A DNA stretch of 64,000 bases from an uncultured Eubacteriales bacterium. GTDB taxonomy: Bacteria > Bacillota > Clostridia > Oscillospirales > CAG-272. Each line of letters begins with the position of its first letter. Position 1 is the stretch's first letter. The stretch is from positions 37,751 to 101,750 of the forward strand of contig CAKSDZ010000002.1 of the NCBI GenBank assembly GCA_934446365.1, given 5' to 3'. The notes beneath the pieces were generated by a model that saw only the letters and a list, made by a program, of their open reading frames with translations, was not told the origin of the DNA and searched no databases. The position numbers and the translations under genes are program-made. Below, piece by piece: positions 1-36,143 of this stretch.

Positions 1-333
1 TTTATCCTTGACAATCAGCGTCGTCTTGTCATAGCTCACGATGACGTTATAGGCTTTCGGCGAGTAATCCGTATCTTCATAAGGCACCGCGCCGACATTC
101 TCGCCCGAATGTTTCGAATATTCCTCAATAAAATCCGCATATTCCTTTCCGCCTTTCAGGAACTTATTTCCGATTTCATCTAAAATCAGCTTTTCGTCCA
201 GCTCGTCGGCAGAGGTTTGGTATGCCGTATTCCCATACAGCACAGCGGAAAGAAAAATGAAAGCGATGACACTGACCATCATGAGGCCGATGATGACAAT
301 CGGCATCACCGAGCCTTTTTTGCTGTTTTTCAT
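1..333 (-). CDS. hypothetical membrane-anchored protein, C-terminus outside window (last visible gene of pilus-like operon)
   Basis: Absent from the ORF track because it runs off the window edge. My translation from ATG 333 reads MKNSKKGSVMPIVIIGLMMVSVIAFIFLSAVLYGNTAYQ..., with one N-terminal hydrophobic helix. Its ATG overlaps the TGA of the upstream gene (ATGA at 330-333), which suggests translational coupling. Confidence 0.5.
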   Translation of the reverse strand, partial: MKNSKKGSVMPIVIIGLMMVSVIAFIFLSAVLYGNTAYQTSADELDEKLILDEIGNKFLKGGKEYADFIEEYSKHSGENVGAVPYEDTDYSPKAYNVIVSYDKTTLIVKDK

Positions 334-950
334 GAGCCGCTCGCCTCCGTTCCCGATTCGGCCGCCTGCGCAAGCGAGGCGTCAAGCGTCAGTCCGGACG
401 TCAGATAATAGGCACGGCGCAGAGCTGTCGAGCCGCCCTTTATATAGAGCGCCTCGGCAATCAAAGTGTCCACTCGGATGATGCCGCCGCGATTTTCAAT
501 ATAGACGACCACCTTCACGGAGCAATTCGATGCCGTATCATAGGATTCCGCATCCTTTTCGACGTTTTTCTCCGCAATCCGATCGAGGCGCGCCGTCACA
601 GCACCGGAACGCGGCGTCCCCTCTTCCTTCATGGTATAATAATCGGAAGGGATATAAACGGCGAGCCTCCATATTTCGCCGCTTGCAAATGAAGCCGGGA
701 AGCCGCCCTCAACCGACGATATACCGTATACAAACTTCAAAGCCTCCTCGGGATCATCGCTTTGCAGACAGGAGAGAACATTATCCGCTTCGTTCACCGC
801 ATATTGACGGTAAGCTACATTTTCAAAGGATTCCGCGGCAAAAAGTACGGTCGAAAGCGCCGCAAAGGAAACGATGATGACAACCGTCATGGCCACAACA
901 ACCTCGACAAGCGTCATACCGCGCCGGGATCTGGTATTTGCTTGGTTCAC
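330..950 (-). CDS. type IV pilin-like protein (minor pseudopilin) with prepilin-type N-terminal cleavage/methylation motif
   Basis: The N-terminus MNQANTRSRRG|MTLVEVVVAMTVVIIVSF has a basic leader, Gly, Glu at +5 and a hydrophobic helix. GTG start at 950 with AAAGGAGG 9 nt upstream. Confidence 0.7.
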   Translation of the reverse strand: MNQANTRSRRGMTLVEVVVAMTVVIIVSFAALSTVLFAAESFENVAYRQYAVNEADNVLSCLQSDDPEEALKFVYGISSVEGGFPASFASGEIWRLAVYIPSDYYTMKEEGTPRSGAVTARLDRIAEKNVEKDAESYDTASNCSVKVVVYIENRGGIIRVDTLIAEALYIKGGSTALRRAYYLTSGLTLDASLAQAAESGTEASGS

Positions 951-987: not shown

Positions 988-2313
988 TCACAAAATCTGC
1001 TGTCCCTTGAATGAGCCTGCAAAATAACCGCCGTAAGCGGAAAGATTTCCGGTCAGCTCGGGATTTTTCTCGACAGACGGATCAAAATACAGAAATTTCA
1101 TATGAGAATCCTCCTCCGCATTCAGCCTTTCAAGCAAAAACGCAAACTGCGCCGGCAGATTCAGCACCGTATAATCCGGCGTCGGCATGCCCTCCGTCAG
1201 CCTGCACTGCCTGATAAAAAGCAGGATTCGCTTCAAAATATACCGAAAGTTCTCATAAACGAAGCCGCGCTCATCCTCGGGAAACTCACGCTGCATGAAT
1301 TTCGGCAGCTTTCGGCCCTCTTTTTTGGTCAGCGTTTTTTCACTGCGGACGGGAGCCGTTCCTGCGGCATCCTCCGCCTGAAGCTCGCCGATAAGCTTCA
1401 ACATTTCCTCTTCCGAAAGATTTTCCATATTCATGGCAGGGATTTCCCCTGTCGCGGCGGGTATTTCCGCCGTTTCCTCGGCCGCAGGAGCGTCGGGAGC
1501 CGGACGGACGCCCGTTTCCTCGTCCTCTTCGTCCGAATATTCCTCATCGCTGATGGTAATGATCGATTTTGTCAGCTGCTTCGCCCTTGCAGCCTCCTTG
1601 GCATTCAGCACGGCCAGCTCCGCGACGTCGTCGCCGTAAATCGTGTTCTCTCCGACGACCTTATTCGGTTTTAAGATATCCTGTCCGAACGGCAGCTCGG
1701 AAAAGCCGAGGATTCGGTCTTTCTCGGTCAGAATGAGCAGTGTGCTGTTTTCCTTGATATCGACGAAAAGAAGATTGTCTTTTTTTACCTTGGGACGCAG
1801 CTCAAAAAGTGCACCTGCGGCTGCGGCCGGCGCAAACGTGAGCGTCGTGACCGGCATGGAATGCTTGGCGAAAGTCTCTCGGATTCCGTCGATCAGCGCT
1901 TTTCTCGTCACGGTCAGAAGATAGGCGGTGCTCTTTTTGTTGGTATAGAATATCTGCGGCGAAATTTTCAGCTCCTCCGCATTTTTATACTGATTTTTGA
2001 TTTCCGCCTTGAAAGCGGATTCCATTTGTGACTTCGACATCGTCGGAATCGTGATGATATCAAACGTCACAAGCGAAGCGGGCAGCACCACGGTCAGCGC
2101 GAACATGCGAAGCTGACGGAACAGCGGCGAAACGGCGGGGAGCGCCTCGTCAAGCGCCTCTGCATACTGGCCGCGCCGGAGCTTATCCCCCGGCAGAGGA
2201 AAATCCTTTGCTCTCGCTTTCTGCACGGAAGCGCCCGGTGCATTCATAATGGTTAGTTTTTCCGCCGCGGCGTTGATTTCCACCACGATCACAGGACTGT
2301 TGTTCGCTGCCAT
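988..2313 (-). CDS. PilM-like pilus assembly protein (tentative) with acidic low-complexity insert
   Basis: 441 aa, sitting between two pilin-like genes. The N-terminal half has a PilM-like layout (VVLPASLVTFDIITIPTMSKSQMESAFKAEI... LLTVTRKALIDGIRETFAKHSMPVTTLTFAPAAAAGAL). The assignment comes from pattern and context only. Confidence 0.45.
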   Translation of the reverse strand: MAANNSPVIVVEINAAAEKLTIMNAPGASVQKARAKDFPLPGDKLRRGQYAEALDEALPAVSPLFRQLRMFALTVVLPASLVTFDIITIPTMSKSQMESAFKAEIKNQYKNAEELKISPQIFYTNKKSTAYLLTVTRKALIDGIRETFAKHSMPVTTLTFAPAAAAGALFELRPKVKKDNLLFVDIKENSTLLILTEKDRILGFSELPFGQDILKPNKVVGENTIYGDDVAELAVLNAKEAARAKQLTKSIITISDEEYSDEEDEETGVRPAPDAPAAEETAEIPAATGEIPAMNMENLSEEEMLKLIGELQAEDAAGTAPVRSEKTLTKKEGRKLPKFMQREFPEDERGFVYENFRYILKRILLFIRQCRLTEGMPTPDYTVLNLPAQFAFLLERLNAEEDSHMKFLYFDPSVEKNPELTGNLSAYGGYFAGSFKGQQIL

Positions 2314-2383: not shown

Positions 2384-2902
2384 TTACGGGGAGGGCTGCC
2401 CTGATTTTTTCACAAGTGCGAAAACATATTCCCCTGTTTTCCCGTCCGCCGTATAGACGACCGTGCATTTCACAATGTCGGAAATATCCCCATCATAATC
2501 AAAGCTTACGTCCCGTATCAAGGTATACGTGCGCCATGATACCTCAGAGCCCTCATCGGATACTCCGTTTATCAAATCAAAAAAACGCTTATCATTTCTG
2601 TTAAACTGTAAGGTTCTCAAATCGGCAGGGTCATCCATATTTCGGAAGGACAATGCGGAATCCGGATGCTCGTATAGCATATACCTTTCCGTATCATACC
2701 GATAAAACCAGTCCGATATTTCATTTTTCACATGATAAAGCTCGCTGGAAAGCTTGGAGGTCGCCGTCCGCTTTACAAGATAGGAATTCATCATCACGAC
2801 AAGCGACAGAAGCGACGCAATCACAATGAGTCCGACGGTAATGGCGACGAGCAGCTCGGCAAGCGTGAAGCCGCGTCTATTTTTTTGCTTGACAGAATCC
2901 AT
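2384..2902 (-). CDS. type IV pilin-like protein (prepilin-type N-terminal motif)
   Basis: From the internal ATG at 2902 the product reads MDSVKQKNRRG|FTLAELLVAITVGLIVIASLL. GGAGG lies upstream. The track ORF extends to 2977, but that extension has no RBS support. Confidence 0.7.
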   Translation of the reverse strand: MDSVKQKNRRGFTLAELLVAITVGLIVIASLLSLVVMMNSYLVKRTATSKLSSELYHVKNEISDWFYRYDTERYMLYEHPDSALSFRNMDDPADLRTLQFNRNDKRFFDLINGVSDEGSEVSWRTYTLIRDVSFDYDGDISDIVKCTVVYTADGKTGEYVFALVKKSGQPSP

Positions 2903-3092
2903 ATAAAAAGCGGCCTCCTCTCCTGTTACAAATCCATAAACAAAGTAAAAACGGTTTGCCGGAAAATCGGTCGGCATCCGGCAAACCGGAAAAATCGCAT
3001 CCTAAAGAAATGAAGCCGCCCGAAAAATAACAGCCGTCATACGAGCCGCACCACGCATGAAGCCGGTATTTTCAAAATTCTCTTCAATATAT

Positions 3093-8225: not shown

Positions 8226-9818
8226 ATGGAGAAAACTGCAAAAAAAGCCGGATTTACCGTCGCCGCCATGATTCTCGCCACGCTGCTTTCCAAGCTTCTC
8301 GGCATGCTCCGTCAGGTGATGATTGCAAGCACGCTCGCCGACAGCATGGAGGGCGTCGCCTTTGCCGCGGCGTCCAAAATCCCGTTTGCAATCTTCGACA
8401 TGCTCTTTTCCGCCGCGGTGCTGGGTTCGTTCATTCCGATTTACAAAGGGAGCCTTGCCAAAGAGCCGGAACGCGCACGGAAATTCTCCGCATCGTTTCT
8501 CACCTGCATCGCCGTCGTAACCGCGGTAATTGCCGTGCTCGGCATGATTTTCTCGCGTCAGATTCTCTTTTTGGCGGCGCCGAAGCTCGACGAGGAAACC
8601 GCCGTGCTCGCCGCGGGACTGCTTCGCATCATGTTCCCCGCCATGATATTCGCAGGGGCTGCCTACACGCTCGTCGGCATTCTGCAATCCCATGAAAGCT
8701 TCATCCTGCCGTCGCTTGTCAGCGCGTTTTCCAACCTCGTCATCATCGGCTATCTCTTTCTGTTCCGCGATGTATCGGGCGAGGCCGCCGCATACGGGCT
8801 TGCCGCGGCTTATCTCGTGTCATGGACGGTGCAGTTTCTCACCCTCGCGGTGCCCCTCATAAAGCGTCACCGTTTCCCGCGTCCCCGCGCCGACTTCGGA
8901 AATCCCGACCTTCGCCTGTCGGTGAAGCGTTCGCTTCCGGTCATGCTCGGCTCATGGCTTATTCCCGTCGGCACGCTTACGGCGACGTTCTTTTCCTCCT
9001 ACATCGACATGCAGACAAGCGGCGCCGCAATCGTCGTTTTCGATTATGCGTTTTCCGTATACTCCATCATCGCCGGAATCTTGACCTACGGCGTATGCAA
9101 TTTCATCTTCCCGAAGCTGTCGGAAAAATCCGCCGCCGGTGATACCGCAGGCTTTGCCGGAACCGTTCGCACGGGCTTTTTTGCCGCGCTCGCCATGATT
9201 CTGCCCGTGGCGGCGGGCACCTTTATCCTTTCCGGCGAGGGAATCCGCCTTTTGTACCTGCGCGGTGACTTTACCGAAGAGCTTGCGGCCGCCGTCGCCG
9301 CAAGTCTGCGCGTACTCACCGTCGCGATGCCGGCCTACTGTGTCATCGAGCTGCTCTCCCGCGTATTCTACTCCTGCGGCAGGGAAAAACATCCGATGTA
9401 CGCCGCGGCCGCGGGCATGATAACGGGAATCCTGTCGTCGCTTTTGTTCTTGGCCGCGGACTCGCTCACCGTCACGACCATCGCGCTGTCAAATGCCATA
9501 GGACAGGTCGCGGCGGCGCTCCTTCTGCTTTTTTTCTGCCGCGGCGTGATTCCGGACATGATTCGGAAAGAGGATATCAGAAAAGCCGTCGGAACGGCGT
9601 TTTCGTTCGTCCTCTCCGCAGCGGCGATGGCAGTTCTCCACCGTTTTCTCATACGGAAAATTGTAAATTTTGCCTTGCTCGGAAATTTTATTATCATAGC
9701 TATTGTTTTTCTCACCGGAATTGTGGTATATTTAATATGTATGATATCGACAAAATCCCTGATGATATCCCCATCAGGCTGGAAAAGAGGTGAAAATGCC
9801 CGTGGCCGGCGGCGATAA
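8226..9818 (+). CDS. murJ: lipid II flippase MurJ/MviN family
   Basis: 530-aa polytopic membrane protein. Its N-terminus LLSKLLGMLRQVMIASTLADSMEGVAFAAASKIPFAIFDML matches the MurJ pattern. Confidence 0.8.
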   Translation: MEKTAKKAGFTVAAMILATLLSKLLGMLRQVMIASTLADSMEGVAFAAASKIPFAIFDMLFSAAVLGSFIPIYKGSLAKEPERARKFSASFLTCIAVVTAVIAVLGMIFSRQILFLAAPKLDEETAVLAAGLLRIMFPAMIFAGAAYTLVGILQSHESFILPSLVSAFSNLVIIGYLFLFRDVSGEAAAYGLAAAYLVSWTVQFLTLAVPLIKRHRFPRPRADFGNPDLRLSVKRSLPVMLGSWLIPVGTLTATFFSSYIDMQTSGAAIVVFDYAFSVYSIIAGILTYGVCNFIFPKLSEKSAAGDTAGFAGTVRTGFFAALAMILPVAAGTFILSGEGIRLLYLRGDFTEELAAAVAASLRVLTVAMPAYCVIELLSRVFYSCGREKHPMYAAAAGMITGILSSLLFLAADSLTVTTIALSNAIGQVAAALLLLFFCRGVIPDMIRKEDIRKAVGTAFSFVLSAAAMAVLHRFLIRKIVNFALLGNFIIIAIVFLTGIVVYLICMISTKSLMISPSGWKRGENARGRRR

Positions 9819-9840
9819 AAAAACGCGCAGAGGAGCGAAA

Positions 9841-11721
9841 ATGCTCTCCATGCTCCGCAGCTCCTTTTTCATTTATCATCTCACAAGATTTTCGGCTTTC
9901 ATCTACCGCCTGATTCTATCCAGCGTGTTCGGTACCGTCATGACGTCATATGACAGACTGTCGGAGGCTTTCTCTTCCTCTCTGATTGTGACCAAAATCC
10001 GGTCGCTTTCGGGAAACCGAGGCGGCACCTCCATCAAAAAAGCAAAGCAAAGCGTGGCAAAATCGTATGAAAGCAGCTTTCTGCTTTCCAAGCTGCGCCG
10101 GCTGTCCCACAGTCTCCTGCTCACCCACGTCAACACGCTCGGACTGTTTTTCTTTTCTTTCGGCTTTTATATCGTCATCATTCAGCTGCTCAAACAGTAT
10201 ACGTTCAATATCCAAAATCTGAACCCGCTTTCCCTTGTCGCCGGCGTCATCATTATGAGCGTCGCGGTATTCATGTTTTTCTCCAAAAAGAATCTCGCCG
10301 GTGCCATCTACGAAAGCCGAATCCTGCGTTTTCTTCTCTTCGACTTTCTCGGACTGCGCGTCATCGACATCGCCGAAGCCTCCGATGTCGAATCCCGCCG
10401 GGGCTTCAACATCCCGTTCATTCTCGGAATGATTTTCGGCGTCTTGTCGATTTTTATCGAACCTATTTATATCGTCTGCGCGCTTGGACTTCTGCTGATG
10501 GCCGCCGTCGTCATGTCGTCTCCGGAGGCCGGCGTGCTTCTGATCTTCCTCGCGCTTCCTTTTCTGTCGACCATGACGCTCGTCGCCGTTCTGCTGCTGA
10601 TTTTTCTATCCTATATCTTAAAGCTGATCTGCGGACGGCGCATCATCAAATTCACGCTCGTGGATTTTACGGTGGCGGCATTTCTTCTCTTTCTGTTTTT
10701 CGGCGGCGTTTTCACCGTCGACTTTTCGAGCGTTCCGAAAATGCTCGTCTTTGTATGCTTTATGCTCGGCTACTTTGTCGTAAAAAACACGGTGCGTTCC
10801 CCCGTTTTGGTGCGGAAATGTCTCTATTCTCTCGCGGTCTCAAGCGTGCTTGTCTCCCTTTACGGGCTGTATCAGAACTTTTTCGGTACGCCGTCCACGG
10901 TTTGGCAGGATACGGCAATGTTTTCCGAAATCAAGGGACGCGTCGTCTCCACGTTCGCCAATCCGAATGTTCTCGGTGAATATCTAATCCTCATTTTCCC
11001 GATCATTCTCGCCCTGATGATTACGGCAAAGCACATCAACGAACGCTTTGCCCTCCTGCTTGCCGCCGCGGCAAGCTGTGCCTGCCTCGTTTTCACCTGG
11101 TCGAGAGGCGCATGGCTCGGATTTGCCGTTTCGCTCGTTCTCTTTCTCTGCCTTTCGAGCAAGCATTTCTTCACGGCAGGAATCCTTATGATTCCGCTTT
11201 TCACGGCAGCGCTCTTCTTCGGCTCCGGGACATCCATTGTCCGCCGCTTCACCAGCATCGGGGACAGCTCAACCTCCTATCGGCTCGGAATTTGGCGCGG
11301 CGTGCTCCTTATGCTCGCGGACGTATTTTACTTCGGAATCGGAATCGGCGAGGGGGCGTTCGCCGATATCTATCCGTTCTATGCACTAAGCGGAATCGAA
11401 GCCGCCCCTCACAGCCATAATCTATATCTGCAAATCACGGTTGAGGTCGGACTTTTCGCCCTTATCGCTTTTCTTATCTTCGTTTTTACTTTCGCACAGT
11501 GCTTCCTCAGCTTCTGCAAAAATGCCGTTTCCAAAGCCAACAAAACCATATGTCTCGGCATATTCTGCGGAATCGTCGCTTTCCTTATCCAAGGCCTTAC
11601 GGACTACGTGTGGTATAATTACCGCCTGTTCCTGCTCTTCTGGATGATCGCGGGGCTCGGCATCGCGCATATTTTCACGGCAAAAAGCACCGCCGAGGAA
11701 TCCGAACAATTTTATTATTGA
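9841..11721 (+). CDS. O-antigen ligase/polymerase-like (Wzy_C-type) membrane protein
   Basis: Polytopic membrane protein with the FTWSRGAWLGFAVSLVLFL and HSHNLYLQITVEVGL motifs. GAGGAG lies upstream of ATG 9841. Confidence 0.65.
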   Translation: MLSMLRSSFFIYHLTRFSAFIYRLILSSVFGTVMTSYDRLSEAFSSSLIVTKIRSLSGNRGGTSIKKAKQSVAKSYESSFLLSKLRRLSHSLLLTHVNTLGLFFFSFGFYIVIIQLLKQYTFNIQNLNPLSLVAGVIIMSVAVFMFFSKKNLAGAIYESRILRFLLFDFLGLRVIDIAEASDVESRRGFNIPFILGMIFGVLSIFIEPIYIVCALGLLLMAAVVMSSPEAGVLLIFLALPFLSTMTLVAVLLLIFLSYILKLICGRRIIKFTLVDFTVAAFLLFLFFGGVFTVDFSSVPKMLVFVCFMLGYFVVKNTVRSPVLVRKCLYSLAVSSVLVSLYGLYQNFFGTPSTVWQDTAMFSEIKGRVVSTFANPNVLGEYLILIFPIILALMITAKHINERFALLLAAAASCACLVFTWSRGAWLGFAVSLVLFLCLSSKHFFTAGILMIPLFTAALFFGSGTSIVRRFTSIGDSSTSYRLGIWRGVLLMLADVFYFGIGIGEGAFADIYPFYALSGIEAAPHSHNLYLQITVEVGLFALIAFLIFVFTFAQCFLSFCKNAVSKANKTICLGIFCGIVAFLIQGLTDYVWYNYRLFLLFWMIAGLGIAHIFTAKSTAEESEQFYY

Positions 11722-24489: not shown

Positions 24490-24518
24490 TTGACTAATCC
24501 TTTTTATTATGATAGAAT
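24490..24518 (+). promoter_or_regulatory. sigma-A-type promoter
   Basis: TTGACT (24490-24495), 17-nt spacer, TAGAAT (24513-24518), in a very AT-rich intergenic region. Confidence 0.6.
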
Positions 24519-24556
24519 GTTCGCGAAAAATGAAAATCAGGAGTGTACATCACAAA

Positions 24557-26236
24557 ATGAAAAATCATTATCAACTTCTGAAAGAACATTTCTTTCAGAA
24601 CCTCGAATCCACCTTAAAAGCTTATGAAGCCCGCATGAATCCGGAGACCTCCGCCCTTGAAAAATCTGCACTTCTCGGGCTTGACGATCCCGGTTATTAC
24701 GGCTGCTTTTATCCATGGTTCGTTCTCGGCTATTATATGCCCGATTCTCCTCGCTATCATGACAAAAAGCTTCTTGAATATGCGCTCGCGGCACTTGAAA
24801 AATATGAAACCTATATTCATGAAGACGGCTCGGTCGACCTTATCGAGACAAACTTTCATGATCCGGCGCAAACCGGCTTTCACGTCAAAGCTTATTTCGG
24901 TGTGACGGAAATTCTTGTGAAGTTCTCAGAGCATACCGAGCTCGAAGAGAAGCTATTGGAAATCACCGTCAGAATCCTTTCCAAAATGGGCGAGGCGATG
25001 TCGACACTCGGCTTCCATACGCCGAATCATCGTTGGGTCATCAGCGCTTCCCTTTCGATTGCGTATAGATACACACATAATCCGAAATTTCTTGAAACGA
25101 TCAATCGTTTCCTGATGGAGGGCATCGACTGCGACGAGAACGGCGAATATACCGAACGCTCGACCGGCTCCTATAACAACATCTGCAACCATTCTTTCTT
25201 TCTTCTCGCATATTTTCTGAACGACCCATCCTTTTTGGAGTATCCGAGACGCAACCTGAACCTGATGTACAGCTTCACGGAGCCGGATTTGACCGTCAAT
25301 ACGCTGAATTCCACAAGATGGGATCAGGGCGGCCAGTACAGCATCGCTCCTTACTATACCTTTTATCTGATTCTCGCACTTTGGGATAAAAATCCCGAAT
25401 TTGCCTACATGGCGGACACCATTACCGAAAAATTAGATTTGCCGTCGGCACTCAGCATTTATCAATGCGATATTCTTTCATTTTTCATGCTTTTCCCCGA
25501 AATGAATGAAAGACAGAGCGCACTTGAACCCAAAGCTCCCGCGAAGGATCAAGCCAAATTCCTTCCTAACAGCAACATCGCCAGAATCTACAAGCCTGAA
25601 AATGATCTCGTCATCACGCTTCTCGGAACAAGACATCCCGTATTCATGCAGCTCAACTACGGTTCCAGCATTATTCAAGTCCGTTATGCGGGTTCTTTCT
25701 TCGGCGACCCACATTCCCAGTTCCGGGCAAGAGAAATCGAACCGACGGAAGACGGCTTCCGGCTCATCTGCGACGAATCTGCCGGCTACCGTTCTCAACT
25801 GGAAGAAAAACCGGAAACCTCGGAGTGGCGCCATATGGACCACTCCAAGCGCAAAATCATAAACATTCAGCATTTCCACACCGAAATCACCGTCCATATC
25901 AAAGATGACGGCGCCGTGCTCGATATCGAAACCTCCGGCTGTGAAAGAATCCCGACCAAGCTCGAATTTGTCATGATGCCCGGCGGTAAGCTCGATACGC
26001 CGACCTTTGCGACCTATCCCAAAGCGGGCGATTATCTTTTCATCAAAGAGGGCAGCGCGCGTTACTTCTTAGACGGCCGCCGGTATATTGAAATCGACGG
26101 AGGCTTTTTCGCGCACACCTATGCGGAACACATGCGCGGCGCATTCCCGGCCGATGAGAAGAAAGTCACGCTCGCCATGACGGCAACGACACCGCAGCGT
26201 TCCACCGTGGAAATCCATGCGAAAAAAATCTATTGA
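24557..26236 (+). CDS. hypothetical cytoplasmic protein; alpha-helical N-terminal half plus beta-rich C-terminal half (heparinase II/III-like architecture is only a guess)
   Basis: Long ORF with no signal peptide. The start is chosen downstream of the predicted promoter, with AGGAG at 24539-24543. Motifs such as GFHTPNHRW are seen. I recognise no confident family. Confidence 0.55.
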   Translation: MKNHYQLLKEHFFQNLESTLKAYEARMNPETSALEKSALLGLDDPGYYGCFYPWFVLGYYMPDSPRYHDKKLLEYALAALEKYETYIHEDGSVDLIETNFHDPAQTGFHVKAYFGVTEILVKFSEHTELEEKLLEITVRILSKMGEAMSTLGFHTPNHRWVISASLSIAYRYTHNPKFLETINRFLMEGIDCDENGEYTERSTGSYNNICNHSFFLLAYFLNDPSFLEYPRRNLNLMYSFTEPDLTVNTLNSTRWDQGGQYSIAPYYTFYLILALWDKNPEFAYMADTITEKLDLPSALSIYQCDILSFFMLFPEMNERQSALEPKAPAKDQAKFLPNSNIARIYKPENDLVITLLGTRHPVFMQLNYGSSIIQVRYAGSFFGDPHSQFRAREIEPTEDGFRLICDESAGYRSQLEEKPETSEWRHMDHSKRKIINIQHFHTEITVHIKDDGAVLDIETSGCERIPTKLEFVMMPGGKLDTPTFATYPKAGDYLFIKEGSARYFLDGRRYIEIDGGFFAHTYAEHMRGAFPADEKKVTLAMTATTPQRSTVEIHAKKIY

Positions 26237-27682: not shown

Positions 27683-29317
27683 TCAATCTCCAACGACAAC
27701 GCTACTATTACCATTCTTATCATTTTGTTTCCAATAATTAGTGGTAGCATTTGTGTTATTCGTTGTATCGCTGTGGAGGAACACCTTAATATTGGCGCTC
27801 GTCTGACCGACAATGCCGTAATTCCATGTTGACGTCGAATTTGTTGTATCGTTCGATGTCACAGAGCCGTTGCTGGTGCAATTCTTAATAATGACGCTGT
27901 TTGCATCTCCTTCTGTTTCAGGTGCAAATTCAGAGTTCTGTGCAACCGAGAAATTACGTGCATATCCGATAATACCGGCAGCAAAGTGATAACCGGTTTT
28001 CAGCTCTTTTGCGGTGGAAACGACTGTCGCATTGTTGATACAATTTTCAATCGTGCCGAAACCGCCGCCGACAATACCGCCGACACGGTAATTGTTTTTC
28101 ACAGAACCGTTAACCGTTACATTCTTGACTGTACCACCATACAGATATCCGACCGCACCGCCGACGAGAACGCCGTCCGCACCGGTATCGGAAATATCAT
28201 AGTTCACTTCAAGAACGAGATTTTCGAGAACTGCGCCCTCTCCAAGAGAAGCAACAAAGCCAACGCCATATTTATCCGCGTTACCGGTTACCTTATCAAC
28301 AGAAATCGCAAAACCGTTCTTCGCGGCATTGAAAGAAGTATCGATCTTGATACCGGAAATGGTGACAGGGTTTGCGGCATCCGTACCCTTGATGGTGCCC
28401 TCAAATGTCGCGCCTGTTCCAATCGGTGTCCATGTGGAACCGGAAAGAGGGATATCTTCCGTAAGTTCAATCGTCACACCCTTAAAGGTCACGCCTTCCG
28501 CAGAAAGTCCTGCAATGGATTTGAACTCGGAAATCGAAAGTCCGTCTTTTCCTCCGACCTTCAACGTCAAGGGAGTACCGGAAGCGGCTGCTTCAATGGC
28601 AGCTTGCTTTTCTGCATACCAACCATAATCGCCGGCAACGCCGTTGCGAATGTAAAGAGCAAGCGTTTCAGTAACGATTCGATTTGCTTCCTCTGCCGTC
28701 AGTGCGGAACTGCTCGAATCGGAAATTGCCTGTTTTACAGCTTCCGTTACCGAGGTTACGGCACCATCGGAAATCGCCTTTACAATCGATTGAACCTGAG
28801 TAGCCGTCAGAGAATTGGCACTTGCCGCTTCCTTGATCTGGTTGATTTGGCTTGCACTGAGGGTGACGGTGGAGCTTGCCTGATATTTCTTTACAATGGC
28901 TTCCACCTGTGTCGCTGTCAACTGACCTTGGAGAGAATTTTCAATGATATACTTGATCTGCTCCTCGGTAACACCCGTATTGCCGGAACCGAGACTGTCG
29001 GCATACTTTTTGATTGCAGCATCAACAGCTTTAGAAACGTCTTCAGATGAAGCGCCTGCATCAATGCCTTTCAGACCTTCCGCAATGGCAACCTCGATAT
29101 CCTCCCAGCTGAGCCAGTCGGCATTTTCGAGCTTTTTGATGATATCATCCGATTTTTGCTCAAGCTCCGCCTGCTTCATCTCCTGTTCTTGGCGGCTCTT
29201 TTCCGCTTTGTTTACAACATTCGCAAACACGGCGATCATCACACCCGCGAGAATCGCGATGACGGCGATGACGATGACGAGCTCTACCAGCGTAAAGCCC
29301 CTCTTCTTTTGTTTCAT
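27683..29317 (-). CDS. modular type IV pilin: pilin N-terminus, helical repeat linker, and GLUG-motif/beta-helix-like C-terminal module
   Basis: MKQKKRG|FTLVELVIVIAVIAILAGVMIAVFANVV. Next come LTATQV..IVK-type repeats. The C-terminus has VGGAVGYLYGGTVKNVTVNGSV..VGGIVGGGFGTIENCINNATV..AAGIIGYA..IIKNCTSNGSV. Confidence 0.75.
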   Translation of the reverse strand: MKQKKRGFTLVELVIVIAVIAILAGVMIAVFANVVNKAEKSRQEQEMKQAELEQKSDDIIKKLENADWLSWEDIEVAIAEGLKGIDAGASSEDVSKAVDAAIKKYADSLGSGNTGVTEEQIKYIIENSLQGQLTATQVEAIVKKYQASSTVTLSASQINQIKEAASANSLTATQVQSIVKAISDGAVTSVTEAVKQAISDSSSSALTAEEANRIVTETLALYIRNGVAGDYGWYAEKQAAIEAAASGTPLTLKVGGKDGLSISEFKSIAGLSAEGVTFKGVTIELTEDIPLSGSTWTPIGTGATFEGTIKGTDAANPVTISGIKIDTSFNAAKNGFAISVDKVTGNADKYGVGFVASLGEGAVLENLVLEVNYDISDTGADGVLVGGAVGYLYGGTVKNVTVNGSVKNNYRVGGIVGGGFGTIENCINNATVVSTAKELKTGYHFAAGIIGYARNFSVAQNSEFAPETEGDANSVIIKNCTSNGSVTSNDTTNSTSTWNYGIVGQTSANIKVFLHSDTTNNTNATTNYWKQNDKNGNSSVVVGD

Positions 29318-29381
29318 GGGTTTTCCTCCTATGTATATATATTTTGTCTTTTTTCACGGAGGCGCCCCATTCCTTGACAAC

Positions 29382-29411
29382 AAAAAACGAGGTACCCCGT
29401 GAGGGGGTACC
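29382..29411 (-). terminator. intrinsic-terminator-like hairpin inside the pilin leader (candidate attenuator)
   Basis: On the minus strand: GGTACCCC-CTCAC-GGGGTACC followed by TCGTTTTTTG. It lies about 65 nt upstream of the pilin ATG and downstream of the promoter at 29492-29521. Confidence 0.55.
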
Positions 29412-29491
29412 CCGTGAGGGGGCGTTTCCCGCGCACTTCTCGTGCGCGTAAAACGCCCCGAATTGCCGGAAGCAATTCTTTGCTGTTTCCC

Positions 29492-29521
29492 ATTATATCA
29501 TATTCTTCTTCTTTTTGTCAA
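29492..29521 (-). promoter_or_regulatory. strong sigma-A-type promoter with extended -10 for pilin operon
   Basis: On the minus strand: TTGACA (29521-29516), 18-nt spacer ending in TGa, TATAAT (29497-29492). Confidence 0.6.
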
Positions 29522-29600
29522 TCGCTTTCCCCTGTCATTTTTGCCTTTTTCGCGCCCTTTTTTGCCGACCACGCCGCATCCGGCCTCAGCGGCCGCTCAT

Positions 29601-30401
29601 TCACACCGTGTCCGTGCCCCACGCGATATAGCCGCCGCGGCTGTCCCGGGACACACAGATATCCCGCACTGTCTTGGGGAAATCGATTTTTTCTCCGGTC
29701 TGACGCGAAATGACGGTATTGCCATACCGATAGAAAGCCCCAGTCTCAATGAGCGCCAAATATTCCTCCAATGTGATTTTCATTCGATAAATGATTTCCG
29801 CATGCGGATTTCCGACATAGCGCAGATGCCATGGCTCATAATCTACACCGGTACGCTTTTCCGCCCACAACGGATAACGGATGATGAATCCGAAGCGATG
29901 CGCGTTTTTCGCCATCCATTTCCCTGTTTTCGACATGATAAAGCGGCGCTGTGCGTAGCCCTCCACCTTGATGTCCGCCGAAAGGCCGGAATGATGCTCG
30001 CTCTCGCCCGGCTTTGCAGCAAACGGATTGACGCCGTAAATGGACTCTTGAAATGCAAGGGTGCGATAAACGCTCGTAAAAAGGATTTTTTCCCCACATG
30101 CCGCCTCGCTCGCACGGATAAGCTCCGCAAGCGGCTGCACGGCTTCCCCGGCAATCAGATTTTTTTCATCCAGTGAAACAAGCGCCTCCGTCCTATCCGT
30201 TGTAATCGGATAGTCAGAGCTCACAAGAATCAGGCTGTCACACTGCCGTGCATCCTCTATCGCCACGGTATGCAAGTCCTCCGGCGAAATCCTTGTCAGA
30301 ATATTTTTTTCATGTCGTCTCACCACGTCGAAAAGCCCGTACGTATAATAATATTTATAATTCATGAGCCTGTTTTTCAGGCTCTTTCCTGTCGGCGGCA
30401 T
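29601..30401 (-). CDS. VanY-type D-alanyl-D-alanine carboxypeptidase family protein (peptidase M15B), no signal peptide or TM seen
   Basis: SEHHSGLSADI and EPWHLRYVG zinc-peptidase motifs. The ATG at 30401 sits 1 nt after the comFC stop (TAAAATG). Confidence 0.75.
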   Translation of the reverse strand: MPPTGKSLKNRLMNYKYYYTYGLFDVVRRHEKNILTRISPEDLHTVAIEDARQCDSLILVSSDYPITTDRTEALVSLDEKNLIAGEAVQPLAELIRASEAACGEKILFTSVYRTLAFQESIYGVNPFAAKPGESEHHSGLSADIKVEGYAQRRFIMSKTGKWMAKNAHRFGFIIRYPLWAEKRTGVDYEPWHLRYVGNPHAEIIYRMKITLEEYLALIETGAFYRYGNTVISRQTGEKIDFPKTVRDICVSRDSRGGYIAWGTDTV

Positions 30402-35023: not shown

Positions 35024-35152
35024 TAAAAACTCGCTTCCGTTTACCCCGAAAGCGAGTTTTCTCTCCGTACTCATCTATCGGGAATTGGCACCTTATGTAA
35101 CACAGGTTGCCGGGCTTCATCGGGCCAGTCCCTCAGCCGCTCTTGATAAGTT
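35024..35152 (-). promoter_or_regulatory. SAM-I (S-box) riboswitch with terminator, upstream of metK
   Basis: On the minus strand: CTTATCAAGAGCGGCTGAGGGACTGGCCCGATGAAGCCCGGCAACC...GGTGCCAATTCC...AGATGAG, followed by AAAACTCGCTTTCGGGGTAAACGGAAGCGAGTTTTT. Confidence 0.85.
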
Positions 35153-35952: not shown

Positions 35953-36120
35953 TAAAAAATTCCCCCTCCAAAAGAGGGGGAAAGCGCAAAAATCACGCAT
36001 GATTTTTTATCTTTTCTCATCCGGACTATACCGTCGGTGCAGGAATTTCACCTGCTCGGCGCCGTATGGCGTTCGCGGACTTTACCGCCGATGTGGAATT
36101 TCACCAACCCCCAAAGATAT
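35953..36120 (-). promoter_or_regulatory. FMN riboswitch (RFN element) with terminator
   Basis: On the minus strand: GGGGGTTGGTGAAATTCCACATCGGCGGTAAAGTCCGCGAACGCC...CAGGTGAAATTCCTGCACCGACGGTATAGTCCGGATGAGAAAAG, then TCCCCCTC-TTTTG-GAGGGGGA plus ATTTTTT. Confidence 0.85.
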
Positions 36121-36143
36121 AAGCATGTAAACATGACGAACGG

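Follow-up and report, generated by a model that had tools for sequence, protein, structure and literature searches.

A compact RNA element of three abutting hairpins lies between a very strong promoter and a pair of pilin-like genes in the window, by which is meant the whole 64,000-nt stretch of DNA analysed here. Sequence comparison places it in a multi-copy RNA family, uncatalogued in Rfam, that occurs in uncultured human-gut Clostridiales. The best explanation of the element, held at somewhat less than an even chance, is that of a default-off transcription attenuator that would also yield a short terminated RNA and be read by a trans-acting factor. Apart from its copy number, the family is unusual in carrying a hairpin conserved only as structure between two modules fixed in sequence, and in ending in a terminator made of a repeat that evolves in concert.

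Architecture of the leader and its operon

The two genes downstream of the element encode proteins with the N-terminal motif of type IV pilins and pseudopilins (PF07963, E = 3e-8 for the 544-aa and E = 2e-8 for the 208-aa protein; Table 1). Upstream of the element are VanY-like, ComF-like and RecD2-like genes, and the remaining genes of the window are of the housekeeping kind (rpoB/rpoC, fusA, tuf, alaS, metK and uvrC). A second pilus-related gene cluster is found about 25 kb from the pilin genes, on the minus strand at 330-2977; it may belong to an operon for assembly or minor pilins that continues beyond the edge of the window. A 575-aa protein without a Pfam family is encoded on the plus strand at 24509-26236, and its position beside the rubrerythrin gene is conserved in related genomes (L081, L086).

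The initial annotation had described a strong promoter, followed by a structured leader of three hairpins that ends in a terminator about 65 nt before the pilin start codon, and all of these are present on the minus strand where it had placed them. The promoter matches the sigma-70 consensus at 12/12 positions and has a TG in addition, and it is the sole perfect site within the 5 kb scanned. Transcription probably starts near 29486-29484. A promoter of the same type, with 10-12/12 matches and a TG, precedes every copy of the element that was scanned (that of L144 was judged by eye, those of the other copies by scan). The gap between the -10 box and the first hairpin, P1, is 11-13 nt in all contexts, while its sequence differs. 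The 169-nt leader folds at -82 kcal/mol, as compared to -49.2 +/- 4.5 for shuffled sequences (z = -7.3), and 0/200 shuffles were as good. The hairpins follow each other closely, with linkers of 0, 0 and 3-5 nt.

The P1 stem is fixed in sequence across the family. All 7/7 pairs are kept across the 11 distinct sequences of the family; six of them never vary, and one has a single G-U. The P1 loop, by comparison, differs in sequence between copies and measures 5 or 6 nt, with the 7-bp stem kept. P2 follows the opposite rule: it keeps its place across the family with four to five unrelated sequences. Covariation, which the initial annotation had proposed as a check, is found in P2, with compensatory changes at 9/15 pairs and 95% of cells paired, a result equalled by 0/500 shuffles; in out-of-register controls, only 38-52% of cells pair. 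The pairing proposed for a switch, by contrast, does no better than shuffles (see below). P2 is thus conserved as structure and not as sequence.

The third hairpin, P3, has a GC-rich stem-loop followed by a U-run, as expected of an intrinsic terminator, and a terminator is present in all copies. The initial annotation gave it an 8-bp stem; this extends to 12 pairs, of which 8 are G-C, in the form ACGGGGTACCCC-CTCAC-GGGGTACCTCGT with a 5-nt loop and with TTTTTGTTGT coming next. With the 8-bp stem, the only conserved unpaired nucleotides are two CUCAC pentamers, while the extended stem absorbs the last two bases of the first of them. The 5' arm of the terminator is conserved, and the 3' arm is variable (GGGGUACC, GGGGGUAC, GGGGcGUGCCC) with its pairing retained.

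The two CUCAC pentamers, noted earlier as an identical loop, turn out to be part of an exact 15-nt tandem repeat that is absent elsewhere in the window, where 0.05 matches would be expected by chance. The core CUCAC-GGGGUACCCC-CUCAC-GGGG is nearly invariant in the family; the exceptions are an A-to-G change in L090, L107 and L110 and a change of CUCAC to CUUAC in L144. The unit is present in 2 or 3 copies, with three units in L101/L102 and L107/L110. Its copies change in concert: TACC is changed to TGCC in every copy of L090, L107 and L110, and CUUAC replaces CUCAC in both copies of L144, which suggests slippage or gene conversion within the element. Since the terminator stem is made of successive repeat units, a terminator requires no fewer than two of them.

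Between P3 and the pilin start codon, a scan of the window locus revealed no promoter-like site. The equivalents of this spacer are 66-82% identical among the pilin-type loci, below the identity of the element itself. Within the spacer, a CCUCC sequence (29340-29360, minus strand) can pair in the predicted fold with the AGGAGG ribosome-binding site of a read-through transcript; this pairing is specific to the window and is not conserved, as CCGCC or nothing equivalent is found at the other pilin-type loci. Two further candidates were set aside. The sole open reading frame in the leader (29329-29493) begins within the -10 box and therefore is not transcribed, so it is not a leader peptide. The minimum free energy prediction also closes the leader with a helix of the A-rich 5' end and the U-run; this helix is paired in 77% of cells, as compared to 76% out of register.

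Table 1. Coordinates of the element, its promoter and the associated genes; positions are those of the window unless a locus is given.
Feature	Position	Strand	Details
Sigma-70-type promoter	29492..29521	-	TTGACA 29521-29516; 18-nt spacer with TG; TATAAT 29497-29492
Whole conserved element	29377..29490	-	covariance model built here; 124.5 bits, E = 8e-35
P1 hairpin	29460..29478	-	GAAUUGC-UUCCG-GCAAUUC
P2 long hairpin	29419..29459	-	9 bp, 2x2 internal loop, 7 bp, loop GAGAA; -32.5 kcal/mol
Tandem 15-nt unit	29393..29422	-	CCCCCTCACGGGGTA x2, exact; repeat search of window
Contents of the repeat		-	linker CUCAC 29418-29414; palindrome GGGGUACCCC 29413-29404; loop CUCAC 29403-29399
P3 intrinsic terminator	29377..29415	-	12-pair stem 29415-29387, -22 kcal/mol, then UUUUUGUUGU at 29386-29377
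Terminator-to-start-codon spacer	29318..29376	-	AGGAGG at 29330-29325; ATG at 29317
Modular pilin-like protein, 544 aa	27683..29317	-	N-terminal prepilin cleavage/methylation motif RG|FTLVE; weak C-terminal GLUG motif
Second pilin-like gene, 208 aa	27035..27661	-	21 nt 3' of first pilin gene
Terminator-like hairpins after 208-aa gene	27015-26999 and 26907-26872		
Pseudopilin-like protein	2384-2977	-	N_methyl motif
441-aa protein	988-2313	-	without family
Prepilin-like protein	330-950	-	RGMTLVEV N-terminus
~285-nt leader of other pilin orthologues	L082:2706-2990, L087:2706-2990, L089:2716-2990, L091:2715-2990		

Distribution and genomic contexts

Pilin homologues were collected and their contigs inspected for the leader, and 18 human-gut loci were recovered from metagenomes by a scan with CTCACGGGGNNCCCCCTCACGGGG. 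The family alignment is a narrow sample, with 11 distinct sequences that all come from a single clade of human-gut bacteria, and the covariance model built here finds only one copy of the element in the window. A contig profile search with the pilin alignment was dominated by the generic N-terminal motif and for the most part yielded loci of Planctomycetota and comparable taxa; of its Clostridia-type loci, those scanned with the model (L001-L003, L006, L010, L013, L060, L067 and L076) all lack the element. The 23-bit match of the model in L067 resolves by eye into three unrelated terminator-like hairpins without CUCAC. A phage origin was rejected: in IMG/VR, the twin-CUCAC pattern had 0 matches, the 29 matches to the P1 pattern alone (at most 22 bits) are driven by P1, and none of them is a copy of the element.

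No Rfam family accounts for the element. The initial annotation had called the leader unclassified, with no match to the c-di-GMP-I or c-di-GMP-II consensus, and this agrees with a cmscan of Rfam 15, which gave nothing at E < 1 in the region. When positions 29250-29650 were scanned at E up to 10, three chance-level matches were found, the best at E = 1.4 and none of them a riboswitch. At the gathering score, the only Rfam matches in the window are FMN and SAM riboswitches, both elsewhere, and seven related loci have no match. The FMN riboswitch (36005-36122, minus strand, 109 bits) precedes an ECF riboflavin S-component gene, the SAM-I riboswitch (35068-35152, minus strand, 75 bits) precedes metK, and both are ordinary. 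A literature text search found the element sequence in no relevant paper. PMC8040213 lists a candidate motif next to pilin genes, HMP2_12443, which is unnamed and 56 nt long; a search of 200 supplement files of that paper did not find the element sequence.

The element is found in four genomic contexts, in all of which it is co-oriented with the gene downstream. The first is the pilin context. Pilins with the same leader are 51-64% identical to the 544-aa protein of the window, and the gene upstream of their element is VanY in the window and L086, an ABC ATPase in L083 and FolD in L090; the distance from the element to the pilin ATG is nonetheless kept at about 57-65 nt. In the second context, the element is located 45 nt 5' of the gene for a 193-aa membrane protein without a family (L096 = L105, L098 = L109), and a promoter scan found no second promoter before the ATG in L096. 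The membrane-protein gene is intact in L098:5054-5635 and is split into two open reading frames in L096:4824-5405 by a frameshift or stop, which could represent a pseudogene or an assembly error. In the third context, an ABC-2 exporter operon (L099 = L104, L103), a second promoter (11/12, with TG) lies between the terminator of the element and the gene in both species (L099, L103). The fourth is represented by one copy, 400 nt 5' of a spoIVA-like gene (L097). Two contigs carry two copies apiece, before different genes. An exclusive link to pilin genes is not supported, as the closest pilin orthologues have a different leader and the element also precedes non-pilin genes.

Among the orthologues of the membrane protein, that of L144 (65% identity) keeps the element, and that of L145 (47%) is without it. 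Since the upstream gene changes while the downstream gene stays constant, and the L144 orthologue retains the element, the element travels with its downstream gene. Among the pilin-type loci, the element is the segment of highest conservation, at 87-95% identity, as compared to 59-72% for the coding DNA beyond the N-terminus and 54-70% for the upstream sequence. Because the element is better conserved than coding DNA and P2 covaries, its structure is conserved beyond what chance would give.

Conservation of the leader upstream of orthologous pilins, the absence of which the initial annotation would have taken as a refutation, is seen in L083, L086 and L090, but not in the closest orthologues. 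These (L082, L087 and L089, 69-59% identity), together with L091 (44%), have a leader of about 285 nt that is unrelated to the element and follows a TetR-family gene. The conserved 5' core of this leader has three CCGCAA(C/U) repeats (UGCCGCAACAG, UACCGCAAUAGGCA and CACCGCAACUGAGCGAU), and compensatory changes are found at 8/62 predicted pairs, from only four sequences. It has no match in Rfam, and it looks a likelier candidate for a riboswitch or a protein-binding leader than the element of the window does. More distant pilin orthologues (L111:3800-4000, L113:3800-4000) have strong promoters with palindromic operators just 3' of the -10 box; these are TAGACAGAAATCGTCTA, found twice and adjoining a divergent Xre-family gene, and GTTACAAAATGTAAC. 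Orthologous pilins in sister species thus have at least four unrelated leaders or control regions. With different long or operator-bearing leaders on the other orthologues, control of this pilin from sequences 3' of a strong promoter seems to recur.

Proposed attenuation and alternative roles

The initial annotation proposed that the 3' CCCC of P2 can pair with the GGGG of P3, giving a plausible terminator/antiterminator switch in a candidate riboswitch or attenuator. A riboswitch that senses a metabolite or second messenger would suit the position of the element, since a location 5' of a type IV pilin gene recalls the c-di-GMP-II riboswitch before pilA1, and the pyrimidine run before the first CUCAC is always able to pair with the GGGG (97.5% of cells). 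However, 500/500 shuffles pair equally well; the compatibility of pyrimidines with G is therefore trivial, and the alignment lends the switch pairing no statistical support. The energies also disagree with a switch. The terminator state made of P1, P2 and P3 is at -63.7 kcal/mol and the antiterminator fold at -40.6, so that switching would cost 23 kcal/mol and would require the base of P2, a -32.5 kcal/mol hairpin that is transcribed earlier, to melt. On these two grounds, energy and absent covariation support, the antiterminator hairpin was rejected. It is the only candidate, and no conserved antiterminator structure was found.

The overall design does not favor a riboswitch either. The helices are nearly perfect, P2 is unconstrained in sequence, no Rfam family is matched, and neither a multi-helix junction with conserved unpaired bases nor a mutually exclusive pairing of aptamer and terminator is seen. 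The downstream genes (pilin, membrane protein and ABC-2 exporter) are functionally unrelated and have no metabolic theme in common. Because of the missing junction and the missing theme, a metabolite riboswitch is considered highly improbable.

A default-off attenuator would work differently. The very strong, housekeeping-type promoter would fire, the nascent RNA would adopt the P1, P2 and P3 hairpins, the last of them the terminator, and the majority of transcripts would stop at the T-run (around 29380). Since there is no promoter between P3 and the ATG, the pilin genes depend on read-through of P3, and both would be expressed only from read-through transcripts. The level of read-through would most likely be set by a trans-acting factor rather than by a small molecule. 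Such a factor would be expected to recognize the invariant parts of the element, above all the terminator 5' arm with the CUCAC pentamers on either side of it, and perhaps also the stem of P1; a fixed 5' arm with a free 3' arm is what would be expected if the 5' arm doubles as a recognition site. Binding would presumably take place on the nascent 5' arm, ahead of synthesis of the 3' arm. The same module before other operons of the same genomes would then define a small regulon, and the terminated RNA of about 110 nt would be an unavoidable by-product, perhaps with a separate function. That transcripts terminate in vivo, that read-through is regulated and what kind of factor is involved are all proposed from the sequence.

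Taken together, the strong promoter, a terminator that folds by default, the lack of another promoter for the pilin genes and an element that travels with its downstream gene make the default-off attenuator the best reading. In the window and in L096, a promoter and a terminator precede the coding sequence with no other promoter, as in an attenuator leader, but this is not so in the ABC-exporter context. Other observations speak against attenuation as well: the second promoter is found in two species, the gap in L097 is 400 nt, there is no conserved antiterminator, and no candidate for a regulator was found among the scanned window open reading frames (no NusG-paralogue, ANTAR, PRD or CAT domain by Pfam or NCBIfam in 42 of the 45 longest non-overlapping ones). 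A more specific proposal, for which the chances appear limited, is that an undescribed RNA-binding antiterminator or partner RNA reads CUCAC-N10-CUCAC on the terminator 5' arm together with the invariant P1 and co-regulates a cell-surface regulon. The candidate regulon would comprise the modular pilin, the membrane protein and the ABC-2 exporter in this clade of uncultured human-gut Clostridiales. The 15-nt repeat is expandable, and the strength or valency of the site may be tuned by slippage.

Some of the same evidence could be read at the level of DNA. P1 is a 7-5-7 palindrome located at about +7 to +25, and it might be the operator of a dimeric repressor that controls initiation, with the RNA part constitutive and P2 and P3 serving as a 5' stabilizer and a leaky terminator that set a fixed level of expression. 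The invariant stem with its variable loop, the fixed distance from the -10 box with a gap of differing sequence, and the palindromic operators at the same position in the more distant pilin orthologues would all fit. The half-sites of P1, however, are 5 nt apart in most copies and 6 nt apart in L086 and L144, and one half-site change results in a G-U. Both features favor an RNA hairpin, because RNA tolerates them and a dimeric DNA site usually does not. An operator would also leave the invariance of the terminator 5' arm and of both CUCACs unexplained, and no further copy of the P1 palindrome was found in the window. Control of initiation is considered quite unlikely to be the answer.

The main rival to the attenuator is a family of sibling small RNAs, in which the element would be a self-contained gene for an RNA of some 110 nt acting in trans; its location upstream of the pilin gene would then be secondary, or the RNA would serve both functions. 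The C-rich CCCCCUCAC, which recurs in the P2-P3 linker and in the loop of the terminator, would base-pair with G-rich ribosome-binding regions. Every copy has a consensus promoter and a strong terminator and so forms a complete transcription unit, two copies can occur on single contigs, the motif is present 2 or 3 times, and the linker and loop are among the sequence-conserved parts while P2 is free. With a second promoter between the element and the ABC operon (L099, L103) and the next gene 400 nt away in L097, the element there looks like a self-contained RNA gene.

On the other hand, the element is always directly 5' of a gene and co-oriented with it, this linkage survives rearrangements, and no other promoter serves the pilin and membrane-protein genes. 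The C-runs are paired within very stable stems; according to the predicted fold, CCCCCUCAC is conserved yet largely paired. A search for the complement, GTGAGGGG, which covered the window only, found it solely in the element's own reverse complement and at 11405-11412 (minus strand). The latter is not a ribosome-binding site, because it lies inside a plus-strand open reading frame (9790-11721). Small RNAs are a less probable explanation, with a limited but real chance of being correct, and the roles of attenuator and small RNA could coexist.

The surface structures of abundant uncultured gut Clostridia, including type IV pili, are likely to be relevant to adhesion and colonization, and to our knowledge almost nothing is known about how such structures are controlled. 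As an RNA handle of about 110 nt, the element is well defined and testable: it comes with a covariance model, a clear division into invariant and variable parts, and a candidate regulon. If a dedicated factor reads the CUCAC-flanked terminator arm (for which CUCACGGGGUACCCCCUCAC is the 5'-arm oligonucleotide), this would be a new antitermination system; if there is no such factor, the element would still represent a new family of sibling small RNAs or attenuators. The practical impact is limited by the narrow taxonomic range of the element, which is also structurally simple.

Comparison with known systems

The c-di-GMP-II riboswitch (RF01786) precedes pilA1 in Clostridioides difficile. Like that leader, the element is located 5' of a type IV pilin gene in Clostridia, which it would gate through an intrinsic terminator. 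However, it matches neither the c-di-GMP-I (RF01051) nor the c-di-GMP-II model even at E up to 10, it has no aptamer-like junction, pseudoknot or supported alternative fold, and it also precedes genes other than pilins.

The hairpins recognized by ANTAR proteins end in hexaloops in which position 1 is A and position 4 is G. The targets of EutV, NasR and AmiR are two short tandem hairpins that overlap a terminator, and the element resembles them in having two identical motifs 15 nt apart, each a pyrimidine run, CUCAC and GGGG, at or before the terminator 5' arm. By analogy, a dimeric RNA binder could in principle prevent the terminator from forming. The element differs in that its loops are the pentamer CUCAC (CUUAC in L144), and in that the first hairpin would exist only if the base of P2 melts, with which it competes.

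LhrC1-5 of Listeria and RsaE/RoxS, multi-copy small RNAs of Firmicutes, resemble the family in size (about 100 nt), in being present several times per genome, and in having a promoter and a terminator for each RNA, as in any independent transcription unit of a trans-acting small RNA. They also share a C-rich motif that recurs in the linker and terminator loop, next to other stems that vary. Unlike these RNAs, the element has paired C-runs and no target sites were found in the window. It is also always directly 5' of a co-oriented gene, which is without another promoter in two of the four contexts, namely the pilin and membrane-protein contexts; of the three contexts covered by the promoter scan, that of the ABC exporter has a second one.

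The conserved, promoter-proximal P1, followed by a terminator that would have to be overcome, is reminiscent of lambda N/boxB and of the LoaP/dfn-leader hairpin. No NusG paralogue or N-like gene adjoins any copy in the pilin and membrane-protein loci examined, however, and a terminator conserved in sequence is a feature of the element and not of those systems. P3 is, in turn, a textbook GC-rich stem with a U-run, as in ordinary intrinsic terminators and constitutive leaders, but it lies between a promoter and a gene, and its 5' arm and loop have stayed fixed while P2 diverged completely. The element thus resembles known terminator-based leaders, yet it appears to represent an uncatalogued family of attenuators or small RNAs.
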